From: Rickettsia sp.
GTDB taxonomy: Bacteria; Pseudomonadota; Alphaproteobacteria; Rickettsiales; UBA1997
Assembly: GCA_038131245.1 (NCBI GenBank)
Contig: JAYPPA010000009.1
Location: forward strand, 6,215-70,214
Length of the DNA: 64,000 nucleotides
Direction: 5' to 3'
A program made the position numbers and the translations under genes. Shown here piece by piece: positions 15,668 to 48,073 of this stretch. The notes beneath the pieces are model-generated. The model did not search any database, was not told the DNA's origin, and worked only from the letters and a program-made list of their open reading frames with translations. Position 1 is the stretch's first letter. Each line of letters begins with the position of its first letter.

Positions 15668-17140
15668 ATGAAACAGACTAAGGAAATTTTAGAAAATATT
15701 GAAGGTAAAGACTTGATGCGAAACAGTGAAGAAGCAATGGGTCTCAAGGCGGAAATAAAAGAAAGTTTCTTGAATCAAAAAGCGGTTTTACTTAGCACTA
15801 TCAAAGCTGATTTTGACGAAGATATATTTAGTAAATGGATTGAGCCTTTGGAAATTACCGATATTAGTAAAAGTGAGGTGACATTTTTGGCTCCATCAAA
15901 GTTTGTTAGAGATTGGGCGCTGCGTGAATTTGTTGAAGGAGCAAAAGCTGAGAATAATCTTTTAAAATCTGCAAAGAAATTTAACCCGGCGATTAAAAAA
16001 GTTAACATTATCAGTAAAATTGACTCTGATAGTCCAAAAGTTGGGATCGCCAAGACCGAAAGTAAATTAGTTAACCTTTCCAAACATGATAATGTCTTTT
16101 CGTTTGGAACTGAACTTAATCAAAAATACAATTTTGAGAATTTTGTTAGTGCAAAATATAACAGATTTGCCTTAAAAATGGCGAAAATTGCCGCTGGGGT
16201 TGATAACAATCAGCTAGAATTGTTTGATGAAGCAATTCCATTATTTATTCATGGAAGTGTCGGGATGGGGAAAACGCATTTAGCTCAAGCCATTGCCTGG
16301 CACATCAAAAGCGCCGATAAAAGCAAAAAGGTGGTGTATCTTTCTGCTGAAAAATTCATGTTTCACTTTGTAAAATCCGTTAGAAGTAACGACATGATGA
16401 ACTTTAAGGAGCAGTTTCGCTCGGTTGATGTGTTAATTATTGATGATGTACAGTTTATTGCCGGTAAAAAAAGCACGCAAGAAGAATTTATGCATAGCTT
16501 TAATCATTTGGTGGAAAATAATAAGCAAGTGATTTTAGTGTGCGATCGCAGCCCTTCTGACCTTGAGTCTATCGATGAAAAACTCAAGTCAAGAATTTCG
16601 GGTGGAATGATTATTAACTTTAAAAAGCCAGACTTTAACGACCGATTCGATCTTTTAAAGGAAAAGGCGAAGATGATGAATCTTGAGATTAAAAATGAGA
16701 TGTTGGAGCTTATGGCTAGCAAATTAAAGCTATCGATTCGCGATTTGGATGGCGCAATTAGAAAAATTGCCGCTAATTCTATCTTGGAGGAAGAGCAAAT
16801 CTCCAGAGAAATGATTGATAATATCTTAGCTGAGTACAATAATTCTTGTGACGGCAATATTTCAATTAAGTTAATCAAGAAGGTTATTTGTACATATTTT
16901 AATATGAAACCTATCTTGCTTTCACAGGCAAATCGCAGCAAGGATGTTGCAAAAGCTAGGCAAATTGCGATGTATTTCTCAAAAACCTTGACTTCACTTA
17001 GTTTGCCAAAAATCGGCAAGGAATTTAATAAAAACCATGCAACTGTGATTTATGCGGTGAAGTCCATTGAAAAAGAAATGGAAAAAGATGCTAGCTTTTC
17101 TAACTTGATTGAAAAATTAAGGCTTCAGATTAGTCAGTAG
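15668..17140 (+). CDS. dnaA: Chromosomal replication initiator DnaA
   Basis: 490 aa. Walker A GSVGMGKTHL, IIDDVQF, and a C-terminal DNA-binding helix (NHATVIYAVKSIE). Confidence 0.95.
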   Translation: MKQTKEILENIEGKDLMRNSEEAMGLKAEIKESFLNQKAVLLSTIKADFDEDIFSKWIEPLEITDISKSEVTFLAPSKFVRDWALREFVEGAKAENNLLKSAKKFNPAIKKVNIISKIDSDSPKVGIAKTESKLVNLSKHDNVFSFGTELNQKYNFENFVSAKYNRFALKMAKIAAGVDNNQLELFDEAIPLFIHGSVGMGKTHLAQAIAWHIKSADKSKKVVYLSAEKFMFHFVKSVRSNDMMNFKEQFRSVDVLIIDDVQFIAGKKSTQEEFMHSFNHLVENNKQVILVCDRSPSDLESIDEKLKSRISGGMIINFKKPDFNDRFDLLKEKAKMMNLEIKNEMLELMASKLKLSIRDLDGAIRKIAANSILEEEQISREMIDNILAEYNNSCDGNISIKLIKKVICTYFNMKPILLSQANRSKDVAKARQIAMYFSKTLTSLSLPKIGKEFNKNHATVIYAVKSIEKEMEKDASFSNLIEKLRLQISQ

Positions 17141-42146: not shown

Positions 42147-43094
42147 ATGATCAAAAAATTGAAAAAAGGAGATCTAATAGATATAGTGTCCCCAGCCTCT
42201 CCAGTGACTTTTGAGGAATTGGCGAGAATTCAAGAATATTTGGCTGAAAAAGGCTTTAGATCGCGCTGTTTTTTGGCTGAGCAGATTGCAGTAGAAAAAG
42301 AAGCGGCAAATAAGTTCCCAGCAAGTAGTGGTAAAACGCGCTTTGACCAGCTAAAAATGGCGATTGAGGCGAGTGATTCTAGCGCGATTTGGTGCAGCTG
42401 TGGTGGCTATGGCAGTGCGGATTTGCTGGAATTTTTTGATAAAAACCAAAAAATAGAACAAACTAAGCAATTTATCGGATTTAGCGATATTACTGCACTG
42501 GCGACATTTTTTAGGCAGAACTTCGGGTGGGAGACGATTTACGGACCGATGCTTCGGCAATTAAGCCAAGGAAAGCTGCAAAAACATAGTGAAGATGCGG
42601 TTTTTGAGCTTATTTTGGCCGAAAATGATAGAAAAATGCTAGATTTTTGGCAAAAACTTGAAATTTCACATATTTTGGGTGAAAAAGAGGTTTCTGGTGA
42701 GCTGGTTGGTGGATGTGTTAGTGTTTTGGCGCATGATTTGGCAACTCAAAATCAGGTAAATTGGGACGGAAAAATTCTGCTTTTAGAAGATATTGAAGAA
42801 AAAGGCGAGAAATTGGACCGAGTTTTTACGCAGTTTTTGACTATTATGGCCGAATCTAGAGCTTTTCCTAAAGCGATTTTACTGGGTAATTTTTATCAAT
42901 TTATTGAAGATGAAAATTTGATTAAAAATATCAATATTGCGATTGATAAATTTATTAGAAATATTGAGGAAAAAGGCCTTAATATTGCGGTATTTATTGA
43001 AAATAATGGCTTTTTAGGGCATAGCAGCGGGATTTTGCCGGTTATTTTGGGTCGAGAAATTGAGATTGGAAATAAATATTTCTTGCAAAAATAA
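42147..43094 (+). CDS. LD-carboxypeptidase (peptidase S66, LdcA/MccF-like)
   Basis: Nucleophile motif IGFSDITAL. Candidate Glu/His triad partners at LLLEDIEE and GFLGHSSG. Confidence 0.75.
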   Translation: MIKKLKKGDLIDIVSPASPVTFEELARIQEYLAEKGFRSRCFLAEQIAVEKEAANKFPASSGKTRFDQLKMAIEASDSSAIWCSCGGYGSADLLEFFDKNQKIEQTKQFIGFSDITALATFFRQNFGWETIYGPMLRQLSQGKLQKHSEDAVFELILAENDRKMLDFWQKLEISHILGEKEVSGELVGGCVSVLAHDLATQNQVNWDGKILLLEDIEEKGEKLDRVFTQFLTIMAESRAFPKAILLGNFYQFIEDENLIKNINIAIDKFIRNIEEKGLNIAVFIENNGFLGHSSGILPVILGREIEIGNKYFLQK

Positions 43095-43146: not shown

Positions 43147-44364
43147 ATGACGAAACAATATCAGGTAGAATCAGTTGAGGAGAATTGCGAAAATCCTGAA
43201 AGTAAAAGGATGACGATTAACTTTGGGCCACAGCATCCGGCTGCCCATGGGGTTTTGAGACTTGTCTTGGAGATGGATGGTGAGATTGTGACTAAGGCGG
43301 ATCCACATATTGGGCTGCTTCATCGTGGGACTGAGAAACTTATCGAGTATAAAACCTATTTACAGGCGGTGCCTTATTTTGACAGGCTTGACTATGTATC
43401 ACCGATGTGCCAAGAGCATGCTTTTGCTCTTTGCGTGGAAAAGCTTTTAGGCTGCAAGATTCCTGAGCGAGCTAGCTATATTCGCGTGTTATTTTCGGAA
43501 ATTACCCGGATTTTGAATCATATTATGGCGATTACGACCCAGGCTTTGGACGTTGGGGCTATGACTCCTTTGCTGTGGATGTTTGAAGAAAGGGAAAAAA
43601 TGATGGGTTTTTACGAAAAAGTCAGTGGTTCGCGGATGCACGCCGCTTATATCAGGCCTGGAGGGGTTAGTCAAGACTTGCCAGATGGTCTTTTGGAGGA
43701 AATTTCTGAGTTTGCTGAAAAATTTCCGGGCTTCTTAAAAGATATGGAGAATCTATTGAGTGAAAATCGGATTTTCAAACAAAGAATGTGTGAAATTGGC
43801 GTTGTGACTAAGGAAGAGGCTCTTGATTGGGGTTTTACTGGACCAATGCTTCGCGGTTCTGGGGTTGCTTGGGATTTAAGAAAATCGCAGCCTTACGAGG
43901 TTTATGATAGAATGGATTTTGATATTCCAATCGGGAAAAATGGTGACTCTTATGATCGTTACTTAATTAGGGTTCAAGAAATGTACGAATCAATCAAAAT
44001 AATCAAACAATGTATCGAGCAAATACCTGAAGGGCCGGTGTTTACTGATGACGGGAAGATTGCTCCACCTTCTAGGTATGATTTGAAAGGGTCGATGGAG
44101 GCGGTAATTCACCATTTCAAGCTTTATACCGAAGGTTATCATGTGCCAAAAGGTGAGGCTTATGGGTGCGTTGAGGCTCCGAAGGGGGAATTTGGCGTTT
44201 ATTTAATTTCTGAAGGGGCGAATAAACCGCATAGATGCAGGATTAGAGCACCTGGATTTGCGCATCTTCAGGCTCTTGAATTTATGGCTAAAGGACATAT
44301 GCTCGCAGATGTGGTGACAGTAATATCTACGCAAGATATTGTATTTGGTGATGTTGATAGGTGA
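43147..44364 (+). CDS. nuoD: NADH-quinone oxidoreductase subunit D
   Basis: 405 aa. [13 protein letters not shown] and a C-terminal ...[13 protein letters not shown]. Confidence 0.95.
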
Positions 44365-44461: not shown

Positions 44462-46117
44462 ATGAGCAGGAAAGGTGAAAGAGGAAGGCATCATAAAAAT
44501 AGGTTACTTGGTGGGTTGGATATGCTGGACAGAAGCAGCGATTCATCTTCTGAATCAGAAGGGGAATTTACGCCTGGAACTAACTCATCGACTTCACCTA
44601 CTGTTATAACAAATATTAGTACCGTAAGTCCTACGACTTCGGCTGGTTCTAGCTCTCCATTTTCAACAAGCCCTTATATTAGTCCAGCCACTACTCGCCC
44701 TGGAAGTGCAAGCGGCGTTAGAACAAGTACTTCATTTCTTGCAACGACGACGACTGATAGTAGGTCTGCTATGGTTGCCAATGAAAGCCTGGGACCGCAC
44801 ATCAGAGAGATTGCTGTATTGGCAAAAGCAGGGCGAGATTCAATAACTTGTGCGCGACTCAACGAGATAATGGTTCAGGTTGGGACTGAAAAATTTGGCT
44901 TTCAAAATGATTATGACCACCCAAATACTTTATATATTCTTCATAAGGATGAAGGTGGGGCTGGGGTTAAGGGAATACAAACTGCAAATAGAATAGCTTA
45001 TTGCCATGGGGCTGAGATTGTTGTAAAAATTATAGATGGACAAATTTGCGTAACAAATCACGCTATATCTGGCAAAAATCTTACCACATATGTTGCTAGC
45101 AGACCGGTGAATGATGAGTCGCTACGCGAGGTGGCTGAAAAAGTTATAGAATTATCCTTGAAACCAAGGGGTCCTGAAGAAGAACCTAGACTGAAAAATG
45201 CCAACCCTGGCGGAATCTCAGACCTAACGCTTCCTTCGGAAGTTGAAAATTCTTTAGAGGAAAATTCTGAAACTAGAGAGGTTCGGGTGGATTGTTTTAG
45301 AGAAAGTGGATTTGATCTTAAGGGTAAAGTTAAAAAGTTTATTTTAGGTGGCGCTGGCCCTGCTGCTAGTGCTGCTTTTTTTATGAGCACTGTTAGGAAA
45401 GCGGAGAAAGATGGGGCTCTTGATGATTTTTTTATTGCACATCTTAGTCTTACTAACTGTCCAGGGAAATATCCATATCTTAGCGGCAAGGGGCCGTCTT
45501 TCTTAAAGTTTTACACAGAGGAAGTGTATTTTTTTACAGATCTTCTTGGCGTGGAAAAAGTTGTTACTCCATGCAATACAAATCATATTTTGATGAGAGA
45601 GGATCTAGTGAATGGCGGTCCTGGCTGGGCGGCTGATCATATGGATAAGATTGTGGATTACCGAGATGCTTTGGTAAGTGAATTAAAAGAAAGAGGGGTT
45701 AAAAAGGTTCTTTTACTTGGAACTGAGGCGACTACGACTACTCATAAATTGTATCACGAGGTATTAAAAAAGGCTGGGATAGAGATTGTGACGGCAAATG
45801 AGGATGGACAAAAGCTAGTAACTGAGGCTATTTATGATGTTAAAGCAGGAAGAATGAAAAAGGCTCAGGGGCTAATAGAAGGGGTTGTTAAAAAATATGG
45901 TAGAGATGTGACGGTGGTGCTTGCTTGCACTGAGCTACCTTTGCCTTTTGAAGAAAAGCAAATTATTGACAATGGTTGGGTTTGTGTTTCTGATGCGGCC
46001 GTAAAATTTATGAGCAAAATAAGTCTGCACAAAAAAGACCCAGACTCAAAAATTCAACCATCAGAGGCAAGTACACTATCCTCGCCCTCTGAAAAAGTAA
46101 CAGCTGTAGGTTTATGA
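44462..46117 (+). CDS. Fusion protein: basic/Ser-Thr-Pro-rich N-region, uncharacterised module, and C-terminal Asp/Glu racemase domain
   Basis: Racemase motifs are ILGGAGPAASAAFF, TPCNTNH (Cys codon 45572-45574), LLGTEATTTTHKLY and VLACTELPLPF (Cys codon 45926-45928). The N-region is SSDSSSESEGEFTPGTNSSTSPTVITNISTVSPTTSAGSSSPFSTSPYISPATT. Confidence 0.8.
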   Translation: MSRKGERGRHHKNRLLGGLDMLDRSSDSSSESEGEFTPGTNSSTSPTVITNISTVSPTTSAGSSSPFSTSPYISPATTRPGSASGVRTSTSFLATTTTDSRSAMVANESLGPHIREIAVLAKAGRDSITCARLNEIMVQVGTEKFGFQNDYDHPNTLYILHKDEGGAGVKGIQTANRIAYCHGAEIVVKIIDGQICVTNHAISGKNLTTYVASRPVNDESLREVAEKVIELSLKPRGPEEEPRLKNANPGGISDLTLPSEVENSLEENSETREVRVDCFRESGFDLKGKVKKFILGGAGPAASAAFFMSTVRKAEKDGALDDFFIAHLSLTNCPGKYPYLSGKGPSFLKFYTEEVYFFTDLLGVEKVVTPCNTNHILMREDLVNGGPGWAADHMDKIVDYRDALVSELKERGVKKVLLLGTEATTTTHKLYHEVLKKAGIEIVTANEDGQKLVTEAIYDVKAGRMKKAQGLIEGVVKKYGRDVTVVLACTELPLPFEEKQIIDNGWVCVSDAAVKFMSKISLHKKDPDSKIQPSEASTLSSPSEKVTAVGL

Positions 46118-47967
46118 AATTTATAAGAAAAAAGAAAGACAAAAAGAAGGAAGAGATTTCAAGCGCCATTGCTAGAAAGTTTCTTATGTTTTATCAGCTA
46201 CTAATCTGCGCCTTAATTATTGCTGGCGTCATGTTTTCTTCAATTGCTATTGTTAATAAAAATGACGAAGTTGAAAAAATGATGATAAGTCACTCTAAGA
46301 TATTGAAAAATATCATGAAGAATGAGATAAATCAAATAGAATATCAGCTTAATTATGCTTCTTCTAAAATATCATTAATTAGTAACAACTATAGTAAAAT
46401 CGACCAGCTTTTATCTTCTCTATCTTCAACTGCTAATACCAACATTTCTTTGTCGTGGAATTCTTATTCATGGATAAATAAGGATGACAAAATTGCTATT
46501 GATGGAAAATTGGGAATTTTAAAAAATAAACCCGATGTATCTAGAAGAGATTATCTTAGGTTTACAAAATTTAAACAAACTGGGGCGGTTCTTGGATCTC
46601 CTATTTATGGAGCCATCTCAAGAAGATATATAATTCCGGTGGCGATTGGAACTTTTCGTGGTGAATCTCAATATCTAGGAACATTGGTTTTTGGACTGGA
46701 TGTTGATAAAATTAAAGAGAAAATGAACTCGGAAATCAACGATAAGAAAGTGAGTTTCTTGATATTTAAAGAAGGTAGCTTGTTATTTTACTCTGGAGAT
46801 ATTACAGAATCTGTAATTAGTCATATAGAAGATAAGGCAAAAATTTTATCTTTAGAAGAGGGTGATTTAGAGACAAAACTTACAAATCAGGGGTTGTTTT
46901 TTGGAGATGGCTATATTTCCGTTTTTAAAAAAGATGATAATTTTCCTATCGAAGTTGCAGTCATCTATGATAGTAAGCACTATTCAGAGCAAATTACTAA
47001 TCTGATAATTGAAAAGATGTTAATAGTGTTGCTTTTAGCGATATTGTTTTTTATATTATTTAAAATTCTTTATTTAAGGATAATTAAGCCCGTATCCCAT
47101 CTTTCACAGTTTGCTAAACAAATATCAAGAAAAGATTTTAATACCAACATACAAAAACCTCTGAATAAAGAGCTGAACGAAATTTATGATTCGCTTAACC
47201 TAATTAGTCAGTCATTTTCCAAAGAAGAGTCAATGAAAAAGCAGCTAATTGATATCAATAAAAAGCTTGCGGCGGAAAATGCATCGAAAAATGAATTTTT
47301 CCAGGCTATTTGTCACGACATTAGAAGTCCGATCTTCTCAATATCAAATGATGTAAAAACACTTGGGGAATTGACAAAAAATAAAGAAGTTCAAACAATA
47401 ATAAGCAATTTCAACGAAAATGTTACGGATATGCTACAACTTACAGAGGATCTGCTTGATATTTCTCGCACCTCAAGTGGATCGATAAATGTTGACAAAA
47501 AATCAAAGACTGAAGTAGTTGAGGTAATAAATCGATCAATAAAGATCTGCTCAAGCTTTGCAAAAAAACGAGGCGTGACAATTAAAAATGCAACTGATAA
47601 AGAAATTAATAAGATAAAGCTAGACTCAAAGAGGCTTAGGCAAATTCTAGTAAATATTTTGACAAAATTGACTGTTACAAGTAAAAAAGAAAGTGCAATA
47701 AAAATCAGCGTTGAGGAATTTTCTAGCGAAAACCAAGATAAATTACGAATCTACATAAGAAGCAGCTCTGATCACTTGGCTTTAGATAAGGAAACTGACG
47801 AATATAAAGAAAATATGAAGAAATTTGGTATGCTTGGAAGTGATGTCAACGATTTAAACGCTGGACTTAAACATACCAAGGACTTGATTGGCCTAATGGG
47901 CGGAACTTTTGAAATGGAAATCAAAAAGAAAGAGTCTTGTCTAATTAAAATTACCTTTAATTACTAA
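46114..47967 (+). CDS. Membrane sensor histidine kinase with a Cache-like periplasmic domain and a degenerate ATPase domain
   Basis: Two TM segments flank a Cache-like region (SRRDYLRF...GSPIYGAISRRYIIPVAIG). The H-box is FFQAICHDIRSPI (His codon 47314-47316). N/G1/G2 boxes are poorly conserved. The ATGA start overlaps the upstream stop. Confidence 0.75.
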   Translation: MKFIRKKKDKKKEEISSAIARKFLMFYQLLICALIIAGVMFSSIAIVNKNDEVEKMMISHSKILKNIMKNEINQIEYQLNYASSKISLISNNYSKIDQLLSSLSSTANTNISLSWNSYSWINKDDKIAIDGKLGILKNKPDVSRRDYLRFTKFKQTGAVLGSPIYGAISRRYIIPVAIGTFRGESQYLGTLVFGLDVDKIKEKMNSEINDKKVSFLIFKEGSLLFYSGDITESVISHIEDKAKILSLEEGDLETKLTNQGLFFGDGYISVFKKDDNFPIEVAVIYDSKHYSEQITNLIIEKMLIVLLLAILFFILFKILYLRIIKPVSHLSQFAKQISRKDFNTNIQKPLNKELNEIYDSLNLISQSFSKEESMKKQLIDINKKLAAENASKNEFFQAICHDIRSPIFSISNDVKTLGELTKNKEVQTIISNFNENVTDMLQLTEDLLDISRTSSGSINVDKKSKTEVVEVINRSIKICSSFAKKRGVTIKNATDKEINKIKLDSKRLRQILVNILTKLTVTSKKESAIKISVEEFSSENQDKLRIYIRSSSDHLALDKETDEYKENMKKFGMLGSDVNDLNAGLKHTKDLIGLMGGTFEMEIKKKESCLIKITFNY

Positions 47968-48073
47968 TCTTGCATATTTTCATTGATTTTATAGTCTAGA
48001 TAGGCTATAATATAATTGGAAAAAGTCTATATGAGTAGCTATTTGACTTTTAGAAGCGCAAAAAAGCATTAAT

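Follow-up and report, generated by a model that had tools for sequence, protein, structure and literature searches.

A predicted aspartate-racemase-type protein with one and a half racemase domains and a Cache sensor (pseudo)kinase as conserved gene neighbour in a Rickettsiales genome

The solved aspartate racemases, PhAspR of Pyrococcus horikoshii (1JFL, 2DX7), a putative AspR of Salmonella (3S7Z, 3S81, 5EVC) and the enzyme of Picrophilus torridus (5B19), are stand-alone proteins of about 230 aa. They belong to the pyridoxal phosphate (PLP)-independent class and share a two-subdomain α/β fold, a pair of cysteines in CNTxH and CTE motifs and the lysine of a VKAG motif. All these traits, the fold by prediction, recur in a 551-aa open reading frame (ORF), here called X, on a 64,000-nucleotide stretch of Rickettsia sp. 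DNA (contig JAYPPA010000009.1 of assembly GCA_038131245.1, positions 6,215 to 70,214 of the forward strand; the window below). In contrast to the solved enzymes, X comprises 1.5 racemase domains, a helical linker and disordered ends. We propose that X is a cytoplasmic, PLP-independent two-thiol racemase that forms a pseudo-dimer, carries a disordered regulatory head and has a Cache sensor (pseudo)kinase as its conserved partner, a reading to which we assign a probability of about 0.55.

The racemase domain of X belongs to the aspartate-racemase clade of the Asp/Glu/hydantoin racemase superfamily; its identity, residue conservation and predicted fold were established directly. PF01177 matches residues 402-497 with 42.3 bits (gathering score 31, E 9.7e-11), and a search of PDB sequences with X alone retrieves 3S7Z (1.7e-13) and 1JFL (1.8e-12), with both Cys motifs aligned. 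A family profile of the 55 relatives described below finds 1JFL with an E value of 2.8e-34, whereas glutamate racemases follow at 2e-6 or weaker. The AlphaFold2 (AF2) model of X, for which the 55-sequence family alignment was the input, has a mean predicted local distance difference test score (pLDDT) of 77 and a predicted template modelling score (pTM) of 0.76. Residues 290-525 reach mostly 88-98 and are predicted to fold into two α/β subdomains, and Foldseek aligns the model to 3S81, 5EVC and 1JFL with target-normalised template modelling (TM) scores of 0.79-0.83. An earlier note on this DNA, made from the sequence alone, had recognised racemase motifs with both catalytic cysteines, and this part of it is borne out: TPCNTNH and LACTELP were located, their cysteines Cys371 and Cys489 align with Cys82 and Cys194 of 1JFL, the Pfam match lies above its gathering score, and aspartate racemases are much closer than glutamate racemases. 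Six residues (C371, N372, H375, K461, C489 and T490) are invariant in 55/55 family members, although the mean column identity is only 17%. Because the two cysteines are conserved and sit in the predicted fold of a family with an established two-base mechanism, they are likely to serve as the acid/base pair. Compared with the solved enzymes, the GGMGPxAT loop has become GGAGPxAS (GGAGPAAS in X itself), and the Arg of the IPDR motif (R49), invariant in 40 canonical sequences, is replaced by Lys336, a Lys that is nearly invariant family-wide.

The same superfamily and fold include enzymes of divergent specificity, such as EcL-DER/YgeA of Escherichia coli (5ELL, 5HRA), RacX, McyF (5WXX) and the cysteate racemase CuyB (NF052483). 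Enzymes of this type illustrate how far substrate range and directionality can differ inside the racemase family (PMC12838360). They match X less well than the aspartate racemases do, with TM scores of 0.63-0.76 and, for CuyB, 70.7 bits where the cut-off is 190. The first Cys, present in X along with the second, is missing from EcL-DER and RacX, and none of these enzymes has an extra half-domain or a kinase partner. The glutamate racemase MurI shares the superfamily and the two-Cys mechanism but is far more distant, with TM scores of 0.50-0.60; judged by these scores and the weak profile matches, X is not a MurI orthologue.

Upstream of the complete domain, X contains a second module (the N-module), which sequence profiles identify as a duplicated and degenerate aspartate racemase N-terminal subdomain. 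An hhalign comparison of its profile (A3) with 40 ordinary aspartate racemases (A5) gave a probability of 96.7% with an E value of 4.5e-10 (columns 8-100 versus 3-105), and hmmsearch of the same profile against the PDB returned 2DX7 (1.7e-4) and 1JFL (5.2e-4) as best matches over residues 3-114. In the alignment with the ordinary racemases, module and enzyme correspond without offset from the first strand and first helix to the DQxH motif and the "G(A/C)D-I" strand. Against the family's own racemase domain, hhalign gave the N-module a probability of 68%. The N-module has no Cys at the position of the enzyme's PCNTAH motif, and the catalytic Cys is gone. It has kept the DxxHP motif (NDYDHPNT, nt 44906-44929), of which D150 is invariant in 55 sequences, and its pLDDT values are mostly 76-97. 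The DQxH-type motif is near-invariant in canonical racemases, including the solved ones (DQEH), but in X it is retained in the degenerate half-domain and has disappeared from the live domain. Because the motif is split in this way between the dead and the live copy, we infer an intramolecular pseudo-dimer, in which the half-domain would sit against the enzyme domain as a pseudo-subunit.

These findings alter the picture of the module given in the earlier note, which had called it novel and shared with a giant protein encoded in the same window. The layout itself stands, in that a Ser/Thr/Pro-rich head and an extra module precede a complete two-Cys racemase domain of Asp/Glu type, but the module is neither novel in fold origin, being half of an aspartate racemase, nor shared. 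Comparison of X with the six-frame ORFs of the window by tblastn and blastp gave a best E value of 2.1, for an alignment of residues 1-201 that includes the low-complexity tract. In the same set of ORFs, a hidden Markov model (HMM) of the N-module built from 55 members matched X alone; both giant ORFs were absent even at E ≤ 10. A protein considered as a link to giant proteins, P0078 (4429 aa, 11 matches to profile positions 50-129), was read as a eukaryotic-looking vWA-like repeat protein with a spurious α/β-fold match and was rejected.

An analogy for the genetic linkage of an enzyme-fold protein to a kinase is found in Caulobacter, where SpmX, which consists of a lysozyme-like domain and a disordered linker, controls the histidine kinase DivJ. 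The resemblance would be one of logic only: in both cases a protein that has an enzyme fold and a disordered region is linked genetically to a kinase of the sensor or cell-cycle type, but SpmX is lysozyme-like and membrane-anchored, whereas X has a racemase fold, no transmembrane segment and intact catalytic residues. To our knowledge, cofactor-independent racemases have not been described in connection with two-component sensors. In the window, the stop codon of X overlaps the start codon of the kinase gene by 4 nt (ATGA), and the same overlap follows from the coordinates in L004, L090 and L093 (L-numbered loci are related metagenomic contigs that carry X relatives). The gene pairing was observed directly in 10 of the 11 distinct loci with downstream sequence (the window, L001/L002, L004, L005, L007, L090, L091, L092, L093 and L094), in each of which a kinase gene follows X immediately. 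It persists across different upstream contexts, namely NuoD, a 619-aa gene, an integrase and BacA on the opposite strand, and no response regulator gene adjoins the pair. X and the sensor kinase with its double Cache (dCache) domain are probably co-transcribed and translationally coupled, and would form a conserved functional pair.

The kinases of these pairs fall into two groups. The window kinase matches HisKA (2.8e-9) and has kept the H-box His in the sequence CHDIRSP, while no HATPase_c match was found with Pfam. The second N-box Asn, G1 (DxGxG) and G2 (GxGLG) are gone in the kinases of the window, L090, L091 and L093, and the phospho-acceptor His is replaced by Gln in L091 and by Arg in L093. 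By contrast, the kinases of L001, L004, L005, L092 and L094 retain all of the H, N, G1 and G2 boxes. Since the second N-box Asn, G1 and G2 have been lost, the window kinase is probably a pseudokinase. The clades of X and of the kinase correspond: X proteins with a head and an HPNT motif accompany box-less kinases, and 'classic' X proteins accompany intact ones, as if the kinase had been turning into a pseudokinase while X changed alongside it. On the sensory side, the dCache_1 score of the window kinase is 30.9, under the Pfam cut-off of 45. Amino acid-binding dCache_1AA sensors are defined by the residues Y121, R126, W128, Y144 and D173 (PMC8915833). The partner kinases keep the positions of the carboxylate-binding Arg and the amine-binding Asp (6/6 kinases aligned), but Y121 is absent, W128 is a Tyr and the Y144 position is variable, which leaves the defining motif incomplete.

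An exhaustive profile search of 1.84 billion representatives yielded 76 matches below 1e-30 and about 55 full-length clusters at 50% identity. These, together with 8 relatives from a word-indexed search, share with X a module followed by a racemase domain. PF01177 matches 52/55 relatives, but Pfam covers the racemase part only. The earlier note would have been refuted by a fusion both widespread and annotated; about 55 clusters carry it, while the extra module and the fusion are unannotated as such. Two relatives bear the JGI source names 'aspartate racemase' and 'aspartate/glutamate racemase'. GTDB representative genomes, scanned twice, returned ordinary racemases that match from residue 256 onward, with no member of the X family among the matches listed. 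In 24/55 relatives (P0007, P0008, P0011, P0013, P0018 and others), a Ser-rich acidic linker is followed by a C-terminal domain of about 100 aa with the pattern ...YRI...DR...Y-SFH-P....I..W...N.I; this domain is absent from X, is not encoded elsewhere in the window and is not in Pfam. Searches of Pfam, NCBIfam and the literature found no record of the 1.5-domain architecture, the C-terminal domain or the sensor-kinase linkage, and the literature searches returned no description of this fusion or of a racemase–kinase operon. One relative, P0009 (L006, 3459-4805), has a GC content of 55-58% between flanks of 33-43% and no kinase gene downstream. The L006 flanks contain long ORF-free stretches and low-complexity translations, a context that looks eukaryotic, and P0009 may represent a symbiont/host transfer. 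Its clade, which includes P0006, P0010 and P0016, has no extensions but an internal acidic insertion.

The head of X begins with a basic N-terminus (MSRKGERGRHHKNR), followed by a tract in which 24 Ser, 17 Thr and 7 Pro account for 60% of 80 residues (24-103), the highest Ser/Thr/Pro density of any long ORF in the window (38/60). Both elements had been noted before and are confirmed, the tract also as predicted disorder, with a pLDDT of 32-50 across residues 1-110; values below 50 recur at residues 537-551. The description of the tract as mucin-like is not sustained, since Tandem Repeats Finder (TRF) detected no tandem repeat in 44462-46113 and the tract is compositionally biased but non-repetitive. 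Ser-rich, acidic or basic disordered extensions are a trait of the family, more often at the C-terminus (at least 60 aa in ~34/55 members) than at the N-terminus (at least 50 aa in ~14/55). Three estuary metagenome samples (X1-X3) contain a second haplotype at the junction of head and module, which makes up ~35-41% of the depth. It differs within 168 nt by 18 substitutions, one of them changing Met104 to Thr, and by a frame-preserving 3-nt deletion. At residues 110-118, past the variable patch, 4/4 changes are synonymous, and for the ~5.5 kb that follow on the same strain contig (44866-50400) no further variant was listed. Diversification of the patch by a diversity-generating retroelement was considered and rejected, as the substitutions are mostly transitions at all four bases and not adenine-specific. 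The N-terminal head evolves quickly.

The earlier note had further proposed a secreted or surface-tethered enzyme, for which the sequence offers no support. The maximal 19-residue Kyte-Doolittle hydropathy of X is 1.41 and falls inside the GGAGP strand of the racemase domain, while the first 40 residues do not exceed 0.48. The hydropathy scan revealed neither a Sec signal nor a transmembrane helix, and no Tat motif was read in the first 110 residues; no Cys was read there either, and hence no lipobox. With the gene in a core locus and overlapping that of an inner-membrane sensor kinase by 4 nt, X is probably cytoplasmic, and its disordered head would serve in regulation or tethering, not in export or as a mucin domain.

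The locus is likewise not the accessory context it had been taken for. In the window, X and the kinase gene are preceded by LeuA, LdcA and NuoD and followed by RuvB, CoaBC, L19, RpoA, Adk, SecY and ribosomal protein genes. This block, with LeuA on the minus strand, was directly observed again in L004 and L090, and in L091 and L093 as far upstream as those loci reach. X does have a higher GC content than the window mean (41.4% versus 37.2%), as had been remarked, but the neighbouring NuoD gene reaches 42.9%, and GC at third codon positions (GC3) is 29.7% in X, at or below the 29-39% of its neighbours. Because GC3 is not raised, the excess reflects amino-acid composition and not foreign origin, and horizontal acquisition was rejected on this ground and on the synteny shared by the four loci. 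Identity to the counterparts in L091, L090 and L004 is 86-91% for NuoD and 80-82% for RuvB, but only 30-60% for the kinase and 27-37% for X; for LeuA, compared with L090 and L004 only, it is 77-84%. By synteny and composition, X is a vertically inherited, very fast-evolving core gene. In L090 (13228-14175), L091 (7259-8206), L093 (6664-7614) and L094 (4714-5658), a gene for a protein of ~315 aa lies between the kinase gene and RuvB. Two of these four proteins have weak or faint dCache_1 matches, and the window has no such gene in its 106-nt gap (47968-48073).

The features of the locus are collected in Table 1. Elsewhere, the window encodes FixH, a P-type ATPase, DnaA, ribosomal protein S1, Fur, TonB, a TonB-dependent receptor, two IscS/NifS-type class-V aminotransferases, an Hsp70-family (HscA-like) chaperone, Der, TrpC, a PurQ-like amidotransferase, MreC and MreB. 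It also encodes three consecutive ankyrin-repeat proteins, which suggest a host-associated lifestyle. The DNA comes from an estuary metagenome. Its gene order secY-adk-rpsM-rpsK-rpoA-rplQ is typical of Alphaproteobacteria and, together with the ankyrin genes and the giant orphan ORFs, points to a host-associated, probably alphaproteobacterial member of an uncultured, low-GC lineage. Of the two giant ORFs, the one that runs off the window has a GC content of 45.6% overall and 28.9% at third codon positions. At gathering thresholds, Rfam detected no RNA family (rRNA, tRNA or other) in the 64 kb. The GC skew was read as following the coding strand of gene blocks, with no single origin-type switch, although DnaA is encoded at 15668-17140.

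Table 1. Coordinates of X, its parts and motifs, its partner and other features (window positions unless a locus is named)
Feature	Position	Strand	Remarks
ORF X	44462..46117	+	551 aa; disordered head, degenerate racemase half-domain, linker, complete racemase domain, short Ser-rich tail
Predicted disordered N-terminal region	44462..44791	+	residues 1-110; basic start, then Ser/Thr/Pro tract
Ser/Thr/Pro tract	44531-44770	+	residues 24-103
Polymorphic segment, head/module junction	44698..44865	+	18 substitutions and a 3-nt deletion at 44744
N-module, degenerate aspartate racemase N-terminal subdomain (by profile)	44810..45166	+	residues 117-235
Linker	45167..45328	+	residues 236-289; disordered stretch 245-255, then long helix 258-281 (AF2 model)
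Complete Asp-racemase-type domain	45329..46036	+	residues 290-525
GGAGPAAS motif	45347-45370	+	racemase domain
NCPGK motif	45455-45469	+	Lys336 in place of canonical Arg
TPCNTNH motif, Cys371	45566-45586	+	residues 369-375; Cys codon TGC
LLGTEATT motif	45713-45736	+	racemase domain
DVKAG motif, Lys461	45836-45850	+	racemase domain
LACTELP motif, Cys489	45920-45940	+	residues 487-493; Cys codon TGC
Ser-rich C-terminal tail	46037..46114	+	residues 526-551; short
Membrane sensor histidine kinase, 617 aa (probably a pseudokinase)	46114..47967	+	transmembrane segment, periplasmic dCache_1, transmembrane segment, HisKA; start overlaps X stop (ATGA)
Box-less kinase orthologue, L090	11389-13224
Box-less kinase orthologue, L091	5397-7253
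Box-less kinase orthologue, L093	4861-6663
LD-carboxypeptidase (LdcA)	42147-43094	+	conserved upstream neighbour; context, no functional link shown
NuoD	43147-44364	+	conserved upstream neighbour; context, no functional link shown
Ankyrin-repeat protein, 551 aa	30976-32631	+	first of three consecutive
Ankyrin-repeat protein, 412 aa	32803-34041	+	second of three consecutive
Ankyrin-repeat protein, 339 aa	34185-35204	+	third of three consecutive
Giant ORF, at least 1393 aa	3..4181	-	runs off window; no Pfam match
Giant ORF, 1659 aa	4338..9317	-	no Pfam match

On the reading proposed here, X would make or interconvert a D/L-amino acid of acidic (Asp- or Glu-like) type, an activity that would be tied to envelope sensing via the (pseudo)kinase, to which X may also be physically coupled. 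Several observations weigh against it. The amino acid racemase model TIGR00035 scores 72.5 over residues 294-515, under its cut-off of 93.1. The substrate may be neither Asp nor Glu, because the Arg of the IPDR motif is Lys336 in X. Members of the racemase family differ widely in substrate specificity and directionality (PMC12838360), so that "Asp/Glu" is a family label here and not a substrate assignment. The racemase ancestry of the N-module rests on sequence profiles, because Foldseek with the isolated module returned no racemases but weak matches to aminoacyl-tRNA synthetase anticodon-binding folds (TM < 0.4) and to reactivase folds. The rate at which X has diverged relative to NuoD and RuvB (27-37% versus 80-91% identity) is unusual for a housekeeping enzyme, and the loss of the ATP-binding boxes in the window clade obscures the signalling output of the pair.

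Part of this evidence would sit as well with a ligand-sensing pseudo-enzyme or scaffold, whose racemase fold binds an amino acid or serves as a platform to control or localise the (pseudo)kinase, irrespective of turnover, in a manner reminiscent of SpmX and DivJ. The strict adjacency and overlapping reading frames of the two genes, their split into matching clades, and the degenerate half-domain and disordered regions typical of regulatory proteins are all compatible with such a role, as is the observation that the best NCBIfam matches of the intact-clade kinases include PdhS and DivJ-type cell-cycle kinases, albeit far under cut-offs. We regard this role as unlikely: both cysteines, the CNTxH and CTE motifs and K461 have remained invariant in all 55 members despite the low mean identity, and this constellation favours retained chemistry. 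If turnover is retained, X might simply serve peptidoglycan housekeeping by supplying D-Glu or D-Asp in place of MurI, with an accidental kinase neighbour. In favour of this, every syntenic locus has a gene for an LD-carboxypeptidase, an enzyme of peptidoglycan recycling, at a distance of two genes upstream and MreB/MreC close by, and the racemase domain looks catalytically competent. The kinase pairing, however, survives in three rearranged contexts without LdcA and NuoD, and such a role leaves the half-domain, the disordered regions, the C-terminal domain (24/55) and the very fast divergence unexplained, all of which makes it improbable.

Fast divergence would suit an effector that a type IV or type I secretion system exports into a eukaryotic host, where kinases or glycosyltransferases might modify its Ser/Thr head while its enzyme domain generates D-amino acids or engages a host target. 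The disordered extensions common in the family and a second haplotype whose hypervariable stretch coincides with the end of the head would fit this role, as would the three tandem ankyrin-repeat genes and the two giant orphan ORFs, which are typical of intracellular bacteria; ankyrin genes also lie beside the X–kinase pair in one relative (L092). Still, X has no Sec or Tat signal, transmembrane helix or lipobox, no secretion-system gene adjoins it, and the head is absent from many orthologues, such as P0002. Its overlap with the gene of an inner-membrane kinase, the pairing in 10/11 loci and its fixed position in a housekeeping block across genomes whose NuoD proteins are just 86-91% identical also speak against export, which we consider quite unlikely, though slightly less so than the housekeeping role. 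The head itself could be an annotation artefact, an untranslated leader of a protein that starts at Met104, given that the conserved family core begins near residue 110, that the AG-rich stretch ahead of the ATG at 44462 directly abuts this codon, and that Met21 and Met104 too are preceded by AGG- or GG-rich stretches. The co-existing haplotype, however, has Thr at position 104 and a deletion that preserves the frame, and a start there was rejected on this ground. The frame of X is open from just past the NuoD stop codon, and the orthologous ORFs in L091, L090 and L093 likewise begin 20-50 nt after NuoD and have heads of 56-88 aa with similar composition. Because of the open frame, the orthologous heads and the in-frame haplotype, the Ser/Thr/Pro head is probably translated, and we attach next to no weight to the artefact.

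Beyond a two-thiol racemase paired with a sensor (pseudo)kinase, a more far-reaching and tentative suggestion is that X and the dCache protein form an undescribed two-gene signalling module. The racemase-derived pseudo-dimer would be its cytoplasmic catalytic or ligand-converting partner, the kinase would have turned into a pseudokinase in the clade of the window, and the D/L chirality of an Asp- or Glu-like amino acid would be the signal or output that connects envelope sensing with metabolism. The fast-evolving head might tune the interaction between X and the kinase. Such a module would so far have been seen in contigs of an ankyrin-rich, probably intracellular lineage.

If the proposed reading is true, X defines an unannotated subfamily of Asp/Glu racemases that numbers about 55 clusters or more at the 50% identity level, in which conserved motifs are divided between a dead and a live racemase copy and in which the half-domain and the C-terminal domain lie outside Pfam. 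While the fold of the enzyme is a known one, its 1.5-domain architecture, the C-terminal domain specific to the family and the strict linkage to a sensor kinase would be new. The idea of a secreted, mucin-like D-amino-acid factory on an accessory island is unsupported and is removed by this analysis. The box-less kinase clade would offer a natural series for studying kinase-to-pseudokinase transitions, and the X–kinase pair, as part of the core genome of host-associated bacteria that do not lend themselves easily to study, may matter for the sensing or remodelling of their envelope.

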